A stretch of DNA of 64,000 nucleotides from Gammaproteobacteria bacterium (GCA_963662545.2 CAXXLL010000003.1:2368001-2432000), one strand, 5' to 3'. Positions 9,332 through 61,279 are shown, numbered from the stretch's first letter. Notes: generated from the sequence alone by a model not told the origin. Translations and numbers: made by a program.

Positions 9332-9656
9332 GGTCGCAAGTTGTCAACAATTGCGCCGATGAGTGCGCGTTGCAGGCGCGAAGCGGTACCCGCACAGCCG
9401 GAGACCCCAACCTCTGCATTATCAGAATACACCTTACCGTTACCGTCTATGCCCGATGAGGTCAGGAAGCGAACGCGCGCGTTACTAGAAATATGTCCGC
9501 TGATGTCGTACCTGATCGGTAGATAGCAAACGCGTCGGTGCTCGTCAGCAGTGCGCTGGTGATCGGCGGCTATTGCCCGGCACCTCGGTTCGAATGGTCG
9601 AGGGTTCGCTTGCCTGATATCTTTGGGCCTAAGTCCGGCTTAAAGACCAAGGTACC

Positions 9657-9779
9657 ATGGCGAAAGTCCATCGCAACTCACTCCAGCCAGGCCATCGCGT
9701 CCACTGGTACGAGATCATCGAAATCCTGGGCCAGGGCGGATTTGGCATTACCTACCTCGCGCTGGATACCAATCTGTGA
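9657..9779 (+). pseudogene. N-terminal stub of a Hanks-type Ser/Thr protein kinase
   Basis: MAKVHRNSLQPGHRVHWYEIIEILGQGGFGITYLALDTNL*: Gly-rich loop (subdomain I) then stop; AAGG upstream. Confidence 0.8.
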
Positions 9780-9832
9780 GAACGAGTCCAAATTATTACA
9801 GTTTAGGGTACCGAACGGGGGCCTAATTTAGT

Positions 9833-10010
9833 TGGCGCGCCCGGAGGGATTGATTCGCAAACAAAGTATTGTTTGCTCACCCCCTGCGGGGGCGCCTGCG
9901 CTTCGCTGCGGCGTCCAATCTCGCTTCGCGAGATTGTCGAACCGAGGACTTCAAACCAAAGCCTCCCACCACGCCAACTAAATTGGGCCCCTAACGGAGC
10001 CCAATTTAGT
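9833..10010 (-). repeat. 178-bp tRNA-linked (RtT-like) repeat unit ending in a copy of the tRNA 3' 19 nt
   Basis: tggcgcgcccggagggatt at 9833 and at 10011 (period 178); 86-nt multi-hairpin module 9852..9937 followed by cgaacc. Confidence 0.8.
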
Positions 10011-10015
10011 TGGCG
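9972..10015 (-). other. ~20-bp hairpin overlapping the tRNA 3' end (possible terminator or processing structure)
   Basis: cgccaactaaattgggcccc / ggagcccaatttagttggcg inverted repeat. Confidence 0.6.
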
Positions 10016-10087
10016 CGCCCGGAGGGATTCGAACCCCCGACCCCCTAGTTCGTAGCCAGGTACTCTATCCAACTGAGCTACGGGCGC
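10011..10087 (-). tRNA. tRNA-Arg (anticodon ACG)
   Basis: GCGCCCGTAGCTCAGTTGGATAGAGTACCTGGCTACGAACTAGGGGGTCGGGGGTTCGAATCCCTCCGGGCGCGCCA, 77 nt, full cloverleaf with CCA. Confidence 0.97.
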
Positions 10088-10159
10088 GGTTTTGCTCGCG
10101 CAGATCGACGCGAGGGCGGGGATTATCGGAGCACCGATCGAGGCTGTCAAATCATCCGA

Positions 10160-10471
10160 CGGAGGGATTATTCCGCACATCCATGTGCTCCACCCTCGCT
10201 AAGGCTCAGGCCAGCCTTCGGCTGTTCAAATTTGTTCCCGACAAATTTGTGATTCGCATACAAAGGATTGTTTGCTCACCCCTACGGGGCGCCTACACGT
10301 CGCCGCGGCGTCCACAAAATCGTCTGGAACGATTTTGAACATCACGTGCCAGCGTAATGGCCCGTAGGGCGAGCCACATGGACGTGGCGAGTAATCTCGC
10401 TTCGCGAGATTGTCGAACCCCCGACCCCCTAGTTCGTAGCCAGGTGCTTTATCCAGTGGCGTTACGGGCGC
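10160..10471 (-). pseudogene. Degenerate tRNA-Arg(ACG) copy split in the T-loop by three nested structured modules
   Basis: 10414..10471 matches tRNA nt 1-58 with 7 substitutions (D-arm broken); 10160..10169 is the 3' T-arm piece; a 244-nt insert lies between them. Confidence 0.85.
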
Positions 10472-10605
10472 GGAAAGTTGGGGGGCTAAAAGTAAATTTC
10501 CTCGAGTTACAGAATCGCTTCATGCGAATCCCGGCTTCTTGGATGTTACGCGCAGGCGTGATGAAACTACTCGGACGGCGAGGCGAAATTCCTGAGCGCA
10601 GGTGC

Positions 10606-11172
10606 TCAGCCATTAATTACATAAACCCATTCCCGCGGTGTCGTGGGTAGCGCAATTGGCGATACTCGAGCAATGTCACGAAGCGCTTTGCGTGAACATT
10701 GCGCGTGCCAACTGTTTTGAGCTTTGAGGGTTTCCGCTGCAGCCACTCCTTCCCGTTCCCGTGTAGTGATCAATGCCACGGACAACTCGACGCAGCGCTC
10801 GTAGTGTGTGTCGGAAAGCCCGGGATAGGGCGACTGAGCGTGCATATTCTGGCGCAGCCAGGCAGCAGCGACTATCACCGCGAATCCGCAAGCTATCGTC
10901 GCCGCAATCACCCAGGGTGGTGTCGTGAGGCGCTGATCGCACAATGGACAATTGTTGGCGTACACGGGTACGGGCTCTCGGCACTGGGTACAGGGTCGCG
11001 TGCGGACACTTCGGTGAGCGCGAAAAGATCGTCTGCGCCGTTCTTTCTCTTTTACGAACTCAGCCTTCCGGTAAACAGCGCCGCATTTCGGACAGGTGTC
11101 CGGCCGGTACCGGCCGTTGTCGTTCGAATGCCTTATGTAACGGCAATTGGCGCAGCGTATCCAGTCCCCCAT
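10606..11172 (-). CDS. Double zinc-ribbon membrane-anchored hypothetical protein
   Basis: Four CxxC motifs (CANC, CPKC, CTQC, CPLC) then one TM helix; 10 nt downstream of pilE. Confidence 0.7.
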   Translation of the reverse strand: MGDWIRCANCRYIRHSNDNGRYRPDTCPKCGAVYRKAEFVKEKERRRRSFRAHRSVRTRPCTQCREPVPVYANNCPLCDQRLTTPPWVIAATIACGFAVIVAAAWLRQNMHAQSPYPGLSDTHYERCVELSVALITTREREGVAAAETLKAQNSWHAQCSRKALRDIARVSPIALPTTPREWVYVING

Positions 11173-20333: not shown

Positions 20334-21365
20334 ATGAAATTCGGATTGCTGTTCTCTCAACAAGTCCCACCGGCGAGCGAACTGTCATGGCGCGAGCCCT
20401 ACGATGACATGCTCACTTGTCTGCCGCGCGCCGAGGACCTGGGATACGAATCCTGCTTCCAGGTGTCGCATCACGCGCAGAAAGACGGATTGTGCCCGGG
20501 ACCTTTGATCGCCTGCGCAGGCGCGGCGGCAGTGACCAAGCACATGCGGATCGGCACGGGCGTTCTGCTCGTGCCGATGTATGCGCCGCTCAAACTCGCC
20601 GAAGACGTCGCCGTGCTCGACAATCTGTCGGGCGGTCGCTTCATCTTCGGCGTGGCGCCCGGCTACGTCGCCAAGGAGTTCGAGGCGCATGGGGTACCGC
20701 GTGAGGAGCGCGTCGGACGCTTCGAGGAAGCCCTCGACCTCATGACCCTGGCCTGGACCGAAGAAACCTTCTCCTTCGACGGCCGTTATTACAAGGTACC
20801 CGAGACGCAGCTGACGCCGAAACCGGCGCAATCGCCGCATCCACCGATCTGGTACGGCGTTTCCGCCAAGTCTTCGCTCAGGCGCGCGGCCAAACGGCAC
20901 GCGGTTCAAATCATGTCGCCGCGGCACGGTCCCGAGGAATTGATCGACCATTTCAAACCCTACGAGGAAGCGGCGGCGGCTGAGGGGTGGACGATTCCGG
21001 AGCGCCCCATCATCCGCTCGGTATTCATCGCAGAATCGCACGCCAAGGCTGAAGAGATCGCGGCGCCCGCGCTGAATTATCTCTTCACTGAACTCTATGG
21101 CGCAGCTTCAGCCGCAGGCGACCGAGTGCTGCGGGCGGCCGACGGCTCGGTCATCACCGACAAGAACCAGGTCGGATTCGACAATTTCAAGAACCGCTAT
21201 ATCATCGGCGACCCCGCGTTCGCCATCGAGCAACTGGAGCTCTATCGCGACGCCGTCCAGCCGACCGAGGTCGTGTGCTGGATGCATATGCCCGGCATCA
21301 GCGGCAGCGATGCGATGCGCTCGGTCGAACTCTTTGCGCGCGAAGTCATACCTCACTTCAAGTGA
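20334..21365 (+). CDS. LLM-class flavin-dependent oxidoreductase
   Basis: MKFGL, RIGTGVLL, LAEDVAVLDNLSGGRFIFGVAPGY, PKPAQSPHPPIW. Confidence 0.92.
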   Translation: MKFGLLFSQQVPPASELSWREPYDDMLTCLPRAEDLGYESCFQVSHHAQKDGLCPGPLIACAGAAAVTKHMRIGTGVLLVPMYAPLKLAEDVAVLDNLSGGRFIFGVAPGYVAKEFEAHGVPREERVGRFEEALDLMTLAWTEETFSFDGRYYKVPETQLTPKPAQSPHPPIWYGVSAKSSLRRAAKRHAVQIMSPRHGPEELIDHFKPYEEAAAAEGWTIPERPIIRSVFIAESHAKAEEIAAPALNYLFTELYGAASAAGDRVLRAADGSVITDKNQVGFDNFKNRYIIGDPAFAIEQLELYRDAVQPTEVVCWMHMPGISGSDAMRSVELFAREVIPHFK

Positions 21366-60624: not shown

Positions 60625-60777
60625 GTCAGACTCCCGCTGCGACCCACACCCGGGTAGCAGTTAACGGCTGATCGCCGCGGAACGGGAAACGTGCGGAAAA
60701 TCTGACGGGAGATTTCGCGCCGACTCGACCCACCGCGATTCGGTTGAGGAAACCGCTCCAGGGTTTCCCAATCAGCG

Positions 60778-60990
60778 CGCGGCCGGTCTCCGGACTCGCG
60801 AGTGACGAGGATTAGAATCTCGCCGCAATCTCCGCCTTCCCGTGCCGAGGCACAGTGGCATATCGAAGATTGTTTACTCGCCTACCGTTGCGGGGGCAGC
60901 GCCGGATTTGCATCGATTGTAAAAATCGTGCGCACCGGCTTCCCGTTTAACCCGTCCGCGGGATTCGCGGACAGGAACCTGCACGCCAGG
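60778..60990 (-). ncRNA. Cobalamin (AdoCbl) riboswitch
   Basis: Minus strand AGGTTCC..TTAAACGGGAAGCCGGTG..AAATCCGGCGCTGCCCCCGCAACGGT..GCCACTG..GGGAAGGC..AGTCCGGAGACCGGCC; boundaries approximate. Confidence 0.92.
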
Positions 60991-61279
60991 TTAAGTAACA
61001 GGCTAACGGACGCGTTTCGCGATCACAAGCGCCTAGCTCGCAGCCTGCGGATTTTCAAATAAGGATCGAGCGGTTGGATTTCACCGCGGCCCCGGTTATT
61101 CACCCGGGGCTCTGCCGTTTAGCGGGCGCTCATACCTGGTGGAATGCTCGCGGCCCGGAACAGAAGTTCAGGCCGCACTACATTCATATAACGGTTACAG
61201 ACTGTCGGAAAACGCCATTCTTGAACAGCCTGCCAACCCGTTGCACGCGTTTCGCCCGCGCTCCGTCGTTGCCGACTTA

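Follow-up and report, generated by a model that had tools for sequence, protein, structure and literature searches.

Transfer RNA-linked repeats (TLRs) of Escherichia coli have been known since 1978, and their function was still unknown in 2021, according to those parts of Stenum et al. 2021 (PMC8144298) on which all statements taken from that paper are based here. These parts, which cite Egan & Landy 1978 and Rudd 1999 as sources on TLRs, list 22 copies distributed over ten loci, the hallmark being 18-19 bp copied from the 3' end of a tRNA or rRNA located upstream, and give a length of 178 bp for the RtT repeat (Egan & Landy 1978 as cited there). In E. coli the TLRs are co-transcribed with stable RNAs, and rrA, rrB and rrF yield short-lived small RNAs (sRNAs) that bind Hfq and CsrA in vitro (PMC8144298). 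The window analyzed here, a 64-kb stretch of Gammaproteobacteria bacterium (GCA_963662545.2 CAXXLL010000003.1:2368001-2432000; positions are counted from the window start), contains four structured modules (A, C and two copies of B) at 74 to 227 nt from a tRNA-Arg(ACG) gene. The modules are members of this known but obscure family, which the original prediction, made from the window alone, did not recognise as the already named TLRs of E. coli. We found that the module, which is the core of a TLR, is a discrete insertion element with fixed ends that inserts exactly and in one orientation at T^TC, duplicates nothing and uses one site repeatedly. The evidence that the TLR core is such an element seems to be new: the origin of TLRs is unexplained in the literature found using the term (Rudd 1999 and Bösl & Kersten 1991 lie outside that body), and the word "mobile" does not occur in PMC8144298.

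The relationship was established with the covariance model R2, which was built from 105 copies of other genomes only. In the window R2 gives exactly four matches, namely A, C, 9873-9937 in B copy 1, and the split B copy 2 (scores in Table 1), and in E. coli K-12 (NC_000913) it gives three 68.9-bit matches (E = 1.5e-13), lying a short way downstream of the 5S gene in rrnD, rrnA and rrnB. The rrnB module is located between the terminators T1 and T2, where it divides a partial 5S 3'-end copy, the order being ...GAGTAGG, module, ACTGCCAGGCAT. Each of the 178-bp RtT repeats of tyrT-tyrV consists of GGTTCG, a module-like core, ATCC...CCA and the trailer, with a core that has decayed (11 bits with the covariance model R1, fold z of -1.1). 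In exonuclease-enriched "mobilome" data of E. coli, coverage of the tyrT-rttR region rose under stress (bioRxiv 10.1101/2024.07.17.603846). The R2 matches to rrA, rrB and rrF and the same anatomy of RtT therefore identify the modules as the known TLR family. The window units and the E. coli TLRs both stand beside a tRNA or 5S gene and carry an 18-19-bp 3'-end copy (19/19 nt here), both have a unit length of 178 bp (RtT in E. coli), the core is homologous by R2, with 79.5 bits for window module A, and the RtT module occupies the site GGTTCG^(A)ATCC. The E. coli TLRs have been described only in tRNA and rRNA operons (PMC8144298), whereas here the core is also found solitary, in IS91-type transposase genes, in miniature inverted-repeat transposable elements (MITEs), in intergenic DNA and nested in its own kind, with defined ends, a target and empty sites. 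An rrB-type module is present in 3945 of 5426 complete E. coli genomes at one to nine places each, 28 places being on plasmids and some of the extra ones being vector-derived or plasmid-borne. The standard rrnB T1-T2 terminator cassette of countless cloning vectors contains a copy of the element with CsrA-type hairpins.

The four window modules belong to one family of 65-86 nt with four hairpins. Its consensus, drawn from A, B, C and 22 further copies of the same genome, starts with a short 5' tail, followed by hairpin 1, a CACCC-loop-GGG hairpin, hairpin 3, the motif GTYCAAA and hairpin 4, and ends with ...TTTGT. In the alignment of these 25 copies, 94.4% of the cells of 21 pairs are paired, as compared with 74.2% in shuffles, and the covariation score is 0.56 against 0.18 in shuffles, none of 500 of which reaches 0.56. 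Sliding the partners reduces pairing to 36-48%, and both sides have changed in 14 of the 21 pairs. G:T mismatches in the stems outnumber A:C mismatches by 12 to 5 in the 25 copies, numbers too small to name the folding strand. As single strands the window modules fold with z values of -4.9 to -6.0 against shuffles. The module core has neither terminal inverted repeats (TIRs) nor a target duplication. Rfam assigns no family to the modules at the gathering threshold or at E up to 10, and its RtT RNA (RF00391) has no match in window 9700-10600 at E up to 10. Sub-threshold matches on the modules themselves are limited to AaHKsRNA22 and SOX2OT_exon4 and are likely chance. Weak Rfam matches of Aggregatibacter sRNA 22 lie on three modules (9839-9947, 10238-10345 and 10306-10403; E = 0.13-1.5), and this sRNA might be a distant member of the family.

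Exact filled and empty pairs were found in several unrelated contexts. In the TIR-flanked element MITE-2, the empty copy C3:439397-439578 of the same genome (G000) reads ...ggctggcgt|tcgcga..., and the filled copies C3:1759169-1759423 and C3:2841962-2842215 have a 72-nt module precisely at the bar, without loss or duplication of any base. An intact IS91-type gene (516 aa, C3:2498999-2500549) is uninterrupted at five or more positions where other copies carry modules; most of these positions are at Phe codons, and one of them, in the motif R-F^H-G, is filled in 11 copies. In other genera, too, modules interrupt genes of this family, at identical or at additional positions (loci L033, L036 and L037; 4 of 103 matches from species genomes). 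A MITE-1 copy without module was located at about C2:411,410-411,500, module B copy 1 is unbroken where C interrupts B copy 2, and in the same-genus genome G002 the homologous 3' flank of tRNA-Arg(ACG) is joined straight to the tRNA, with a module on neither side. Beyond the tRNA, the flanks of the window locus show no synteny even within the genus. These pairs support the proposed nature of the RtT-like repeat core as a site-specific, non-autonomous unit of insertion, here seen to be discrete and orientation-specific as well, and the absence of a target duplication that had been noted for the window modules.

Among 104 distinct copies, 78 have a C directly after the ...TTGT end; the next base is mostly G or A, and then comes A. 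With the terminal T assignable to either side, all precise cases read N-T, then the module ending ...TTG, then T-C. Insertion is exact and oriented, between T and TC, and the favourite site T^TCGA(A) is the core of the T-loop. Because TTCGAA is a palindrome, modules occur in T-loops in both orientations: the cut is GGT^TCGA when the module is co-oriented with the tRNA and lies at the equivalent position of the opposite strand when it is opposed. Insertions were also found in an anticodon loop and in genes for IS91-type transposases, in MITEs of two families and, in E. coli, at the 3' end of 5S rRNA, and C entered B at ...GAGAT^T on B's other strand. The left T is retained after insertion and the site can therefore be reused, as seen for A beside B, for C in B and for tandem arrays of the short T-type copies described below. 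The target proposed by the original prediction, the position 5' of AATC in T-loop-like sequence, holds insofar as the T-loop core is the favourite; neither AATC nor a T-loop as such is required, since the rule is the looser T^TC, and "5' of AATC" is therefore only one of two classes. The flanks, whose tabulation it had suggested, show the T^TC junction, and empty sites exist.

At the locus itself, the degenerate tRNA-Arg copy described by the original prediction is indeed split in its T-loop by A and B. It consists of 10161-10169 and 10414-10471, thereby retaining 9 nt of the 3' part and 58 nt of the 5' part of a tRNA, and, with the modules excised in silico, agrees with the gene at 64 of 77 positions. 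On the + strand A, B and C stand between ...GGGATT and CGAACC..., A occupying the same T-loop position as B copy 2 and lying to its left. Module C, the site of which reads ...GAGAT^T... on its own strand, sits inside B copy 2 immediately before the last hairpin of B, and is related to A (58/81 positions identical between A and the reverse complement of C). B copy 2 without C is a near copy of 9852-9937, as predicted, and the modules do start with ACAA and end with ..GAAT(C) in tRNA-sense orientation. At least three insertion events are needed, of B into the T-loop, of A at the same site and of C into B, as had been claimed. Every boundary has a 1-nt ambiguity because a T can belong to either side. 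The observation underlying the original prediction is confirmed in this way, and its interpretation as a whole is partly supported.

Table 1. Features of the tRNA-Arg(ACG) locus (window positions) and of the related E. coli modules (NC_000913 positions).
Feature	Position	Strand	Evidence or remark
Displaced tRNA-Arg 3' end with 7 nt of duplicated trailer	9826..9851	-	Sequence; comparison with G002
Module B copy 1, 86 nt, four hairpins	9852..9937	+	R1 55.6 bits; R2 33.8 bits, E = 1e-6; fold z -6.0
Spacer of the 178-bp unit	9938..10010	-	Sequence by eye
Functional tRNA-Arg(ACG)	10011..10087	-	ARAGORN; Rfam tRNA 64 bits
Degenerate tRNA-Arg copy, T-stem 3' strand, GGAGGGATT	10161..10169	-	Acceptor 3' strand missing
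Module A, 81 nt	10170..10250	+	R1 76.3 bits; R2 79.5 bits, E = 5e-18; fold z -4.9
Module B copy 2, 5' part, hairpins 1-3	10251..10313	+	77/86 identical to 9852-9937 when joined to 10393-10413; split B, R2 18.9 bits, E = 0.005
Module C, 79 nt, A-like, inverted	10314..10392	-	R1 67.5 bits; R2 66.7 bits, E = 7e-15; fold z -5.2
Module B copy 2, 3' part, hairpin 4, end ...GATTGT	10393..10413	+	21/21 identical to 9917-9937
Degenerate tRNA-Arg copy, 5' 58 nt	10414..10471	-	T-loop remainder, T-stem, anticodon and D arms, acceptor 5' strand
rrB module, E. coli	4171838-4171912		T1-T2 spacer of rrn operon
rrA module, E. coli	4040718-4040792		T1-T2 spacer of rrn operon
rrF module, E. coli	3423267-3423341		T1-T2 spacer of rrn operon

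The nested arrangement was compared with independent contigs. The region 9600-10700 is tiled by Logan contigs of four runs from four studies with zero or one difference (one of the runs may be the window's own source), and in three of the four runs a single 222-nt contig piece (10221-10442) spans the junctions of A with the 5' part of B, of this part with C, of C with the 3' part of B, and of the latter with the pseudo-tRNA. The arrangement is therefore not an assembly chimera, the alternative that the original prediction had raised. With contigs from three studies bridging all junctions, and with R2 E-values between 5e-18 and 5e-3 for the window modules, assembly artefact or chance resemblance has a negligible probability as an explanation.

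On the other side of the live gene, B copy 1 sits in a T-loop between GGGAT(T) and (T)CGAACC, with the element strand antisense to the tRNA. Besides the T-loop remnant CGAACC, the spacer following it contains an inverted, degenerate tRNA 3'-end copy and the hairpin of the trailer that follows the live tRNA. Adjoining B copy 1, 9833-9851 is identical at 19/19 nt to the tRNA-Arg gene's 3' end at 10011-10029, and the displaced fragment that contains it is joined to the ancestral downstream flank, whose homolog in G002 abuts the intact tRNA. The G002 ortholog lacks the block 9852-10029 (178 nt). In comparison with it, the T-loop of the window contains an additional 178 bases: the 86 nt of module B, followed by 92 nt with a newly copied tRNA 3' end as their last part. 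A displaced fragment corresponding to the 18-19-nt 3' end of a stable RNA, and the co-transcription of TLRs with stable RNAs in E. coli (PMC8144298), would be compatible with an RNA-mediated spread in which module-bearing transcripts of tRNA or rRNA operons are reverse transcribed and the copy is integrated. We regard this as highly improbable: the duplicated segment includes trailer beyond CCA, which is untranscribed or trimmed, and insertions with exact boundaries are found on either strand of T-loops and in DNA other than tRNA genes.

The genome to which the window belongs (5.58 Mb) contains at least 66 R1 copies, a lower bound with 150 of 2582 first-look candidates scored. When these 66 copies are sorted by context, 23 lie in or abut IS91-type (Pfam Y2_Tnp) transposase genes or their fragments, 16 are short T-type copies, mostly within the TIR-flanked MITE-1 and often two to three in tandem, 13 lie no more than 300 nt from a tRNA gene (where chance would give 0.4), two are in MITE-2, one is at an orphan T-loop-like site and 11 are elsewhere; 53 of the 66 are thus not tRNA-linked. 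The tRNA-linked copies split partial copies of tRNA-Arg, -Pro, -Ser(TGA) and -Gln in the T-loop, and at tRNA-Ser(CGA) modules split the anticodon loop in three 176-bp tandem units (C3:2338086-2338600). An additional copy of the gene's own 3' 17 nt within 700 nt was found for 2 of 50 tRNA genes, and all three such copies adjoin a module.

The carriers of the solitary copies were also inspected. Together with C3:2498999-2500549, about 20 other Y2_Tnp matches form a "graveyard" of IS91-family transposase genes, examples being C3:2046947-2048017, C3:2694494-2710099 and C2:717981-725054, and many of the fragments are interrupted by modules. A 2.8-kb IS91-like element with a 406-aa Y2 gene is present in three near-identical copies (C3:6584-9421, C3:920803-923640 and C2:623520-627523); one of them lies between two inverted copies of tRNA-Ser(TGA) (C3:5883-5972 and 20983-21072), both of which are flanked by a pseudo-tRNA containing a B-like module. 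MITE-2 is about 180 bp long, has 17-bp terminal inverted repeats and transports the module as a passenger; G002 lacks it at the orthologous site and has it at other loci, and this carrier has therefore moved recently. MITE-1 is a TIR-flanked repeat with one to three tandem T-type modules of 64-68 nt (for example C3:821100-821345, C2:2528575-2528708 and C2:1819549-1819748). A repeat of about 100 nt adjoining a module at C2:385562-385664 (L170, 663-765) has at least six copies in G002 and is probably the right part of a MITE-2-like element.

The scan of window and related genomes with a covariance model, suggested by the original prediction, was positive with R1 for 24 of 40 relatives, of which 17 (out of 24) belong to the same family and 7 (out of 16) to other families of the class (25 of 41 with the own genome included). 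A core-pattern search of species genomes returned 89 stretches, mostly from diverse Gammaproteobacteria and a few from metagenome-assembled genomes otherwise labelled; in these species genomes R1 identified 103 full-length copies in 80 loci, plus two cut by a locus end, with 19 of the 103 within 300 nt of a tRNA gene. Twenty loci were taken from six other genomes, of which five have no Y2 match; 16 of these loci had a tRNA gene, of varied identity. There the module sits in a partial T-arm-to-CCA copy, and the trailer is duplicated too. Over all sets, 37 of the 55 tRNA-linked copies are downstream and 18 upstream of the gene. Locus L039 (G023:C4, 1501-1901), from another genus, has three tandem modules at 164-nt spacing beside tRNA-Ser(CGA) (1957-2046); the module inspected there lies in an anticodon-loop copy, and the array resembles the one of three 176-bp units at tRNA-Ser(CGA) in G000. 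Inspection of open reading frames (ORFs) at eight loci from seven other genomes showed no shared gene neighbouring the modules.

The absence of TIRs and target duplication, the hairpins at both ends and the oriented insertion at a short motif are traits resembling those of elements moved by HUH enzymes, and we consider it probable that TLR cores are non-autonomous T^TC insertion elements moving as single-stranded DNA by means of a trans-acting enzyme of this type. Elements of the IS200/IS605 group (HUH Y1, "peel and paste") have no TIRs, make no target duplication, have hairpins at both ends and insert in a fixed orientation beside a short sequence. The modules share all four properties, and differ in that no cognate Y1 gene with the same ends was found, in being constrained on both sides of the target, in a 3' hairpin that reaches the very end and in showing no lagging-strand bias. 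REP/BIME and REPIN sequences are short, structured, mostly extragenic gammaproteobacterial repeats whose movement is ascribed to a domesticated Y1 enzyme (RAYT) acting in trans. The modules are repeats of the same general kind, and are distinguished by four distinct hairpins in place of one palindrome or inverted pair and by not being clustered around RAYT-like genes. IS91/ISCR elements and Helitrons (HUH Y2) insert at a short motif without duplication and have a hairpin at the 3' end; module sites are GT^TC in several cases, the module also has a 3'-end hairpin, and the 178-bp unit would be explained if flanking DNA were captured by read-through. Y2 genes co-occur with the modules as well, being present in 15 of 24 module-positive and in 0 of 16 module-negative relatives; nevertheless, nine module-positive relatives have no detectable Y2 gene, the modules interrupt Y2 genes rather than flank them, and the module ends are unlike those of two IS91-type elements. 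From classical MITEs mobilized by DDE enzymes the modules differ by lacking TIRs and target duplication, being only passengers in two TIR-MITE families.

In the mechanism that we propose, an HUH-type enzyme, either IS200/IS605-like or IS91-like, would act in trans and move the element as single-stranded DNA, which would enter in fixed orientation between the two T's of 5'-T^TC-3', best at T^TCGA(A). This would suit the targets, because these are loops of sequences that fold as single strands, namely T- and anticodon arms of either strand, and IS91-type rolling-circle elements, which have single-stranded stages. In stable-RNA genes the surviving insertions would be those that bring along a copy of the 3' part of the gene, and the 178-bp unit, as a module with 92 nt ending in the tRNA 3' end, would leave the gene intact and displace its old 3' end. 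Such a unit could arise by read-through: if the right-end cut were skipped and the next T-loop GGGAT^T used, the piece would comprise the module and CGAACC...TGGCGCGCCCGGAGGGAT(T), and its insertion at GGGAT^T of an intact tRNA gene would produce exactly the arrangement seen in comparison with G002, which is a model and not a result.

Several observations weigh against this mechanism. No module lies within 2 kb of any of the seven Y1 genes of the own genome; the module nearest to a Y1 match is at least 2.4 kb off and lies in a Y2 fragment, and a Y1 TnpA gene bracketed by module ends was not found among the seven matches. A RAYT-like Y1 gene (219 aa) is encoded just upstream of the window (L006 = C3:2364822-2368160, ORF 1213-1872 on the - strand), and is flanked by AT-rich inverted repeats of its own (L006 1176-1193 and 1942-1991) that are unrelated to the modules. 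The ends of the 2.8-kb insertion sequence (three copies) and of a 1752-bp insertion sequence of genome G004 are also unlike module ends. A search with half-modules for a gene bracketed by orphan ends found none and yielded eight orphan sites resembling hairpin 4, of which the only real-looking one (C2:408344) has no partner end or gene. The co-occurrence of Y2 genes is partly circular because modules lie inside Y2 genes, and one module-positive relative has neither Y1 nor Y2 nor IS110. In contrast to IS608-type ends, the cut is constrained on its two sides (T^TC) and the 3' hairpin extends right up to the end of the element. Replication-strand bias was absent, with 37 versus 29 of 66 copies on the two strands, where replichores were taken from a partly noisy GC-skew profile and the copies are not independent. 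Neither polymorphism nor an excision product was seen in the contigs of the four runs, and the three joints reported from them fall in repeats and carry no information. For solitary modules, candidate orthologous empty sites at the two loci tried turned out to reflect insertions of the carrier TIR-MITEs.

The enzyme could also be a site-specific recombinase of another type, either an IS110-type DEDD recombinase with guide RNA or a tyrosine integrase with a T-loop attachment site, moving either the module or the 178-bp unit. Integrases classically target T-loops, IS110 elements insert in an oriented manner and without duplication, and the unit brings a replacement tRNA 3' end in the manner of integrative islands. 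IS110 genes occur in the own genome and in 11 of 24 module-positive and 3 of 16 module-negative relatives, as compared with 19 of 24 and 6 of 16 for Y1 (in all these comparisons over 40 relatives, kin are not independent and small genomes lack all three). Such a recombinase nonetheless seems distinctly unlikely to us, since solitary insertions show no core duplication, the common target is just ~3-5 nt, 13 of the 24 module-positive relatives have no IS110 and the loci inspected contain no module-linked recombinase gene.

The modules also have conserved hairpin loops. Of 198 distinct copies, 135 have GGA(Y) as the loop of hairpin 1 on the strand that starts with ACAA (the form CA(N)GGATG occurs in 89) and 165 have GGA as that of hairpin 4, with both loops present in 126; the opposite strand has GGA loops in only 13 and 7 of the 198. 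GGA in hairpin loops is the binding signature of CsrA/RsmA, and, judged from the sequence pattern, the RNA of the element may bind CsrA, or the loops may be read by a mobilising protein. With two GGA hairpin loops per module on one strand, and CsrA binding in vitro known from E. coli RrB (PMC8144298), the modules resemble CsrB/RsmZ, from which they differ in having only two sites, in their variable orientation to host transcription and in being dispersed as an insertion element. A module that is mainly a functional RNA domain of stable-RNA operons (CsrA/RsmA-binding, processing or terminator-associated) and was spread by duplication, unequal crossing-over and gene conversion would account for the strand preference of the loops, for the in vitro binding of CsrA and Hfq by RrB (PMC8144298), for the co-orientation of the GGA strand with the tRNA in 41 of 55 tRNA-linked copies, and for the tandem arrays at tRNA-Ser(CGA) in G000 and L039. 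It would not account for exact T^TC insertions that have empty counterparts in every case and lie in transposase genes, in MITEs of two families and inside a further module; in addition, the strand without GGA loops is in the sense of the host transcript in 14 of the 55 tRNA-linked copies and in most copies in Y2 genes, and the GGA loop of hairpin 1 is missing from B-type copies. We therefore consider it unlikely that RNA function is the main explanation, while a mobile element whose RNA binds CsrA can, in principle, make both readings true together.

Reading the TLR core as an insertion element would explain why TLRs bear a 3' end derived from the tRNA or 5S gene beside them, why tandem units measure 176-178 bp, why pseudo-tRNA fragments pile up beside tRNA genes and why assemblies break at such sites, and it provides a testable answer to the question of TLR origin. 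The enzyme, if found, would be a new target-specific system for insertion of single-stranded DNA. In a broader and much more tentative picture, TLR cores might be a widespread class of miniature single-stranded DNA transposons of Gammaproteobacteria that home to T^TCGA in stable-RNA loops, survive there by way of the "self-healing" unit of ~178 bp with its replacement 3' end, prefer DNA with single-stranded stages (IS91-type elements and MITEs), and produce transcripts whose two CsrA-type GGA hairpins would link a selfish element to growth-rate-coupled Csr regulation; that they have so far gone unrecognised as transposons, as far as literature searches show, is put forward with similar reserve. 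Apart from the modules, the window contains a cobalamin riboswitch at 60764-60998 on the - strand (114.5 bits).

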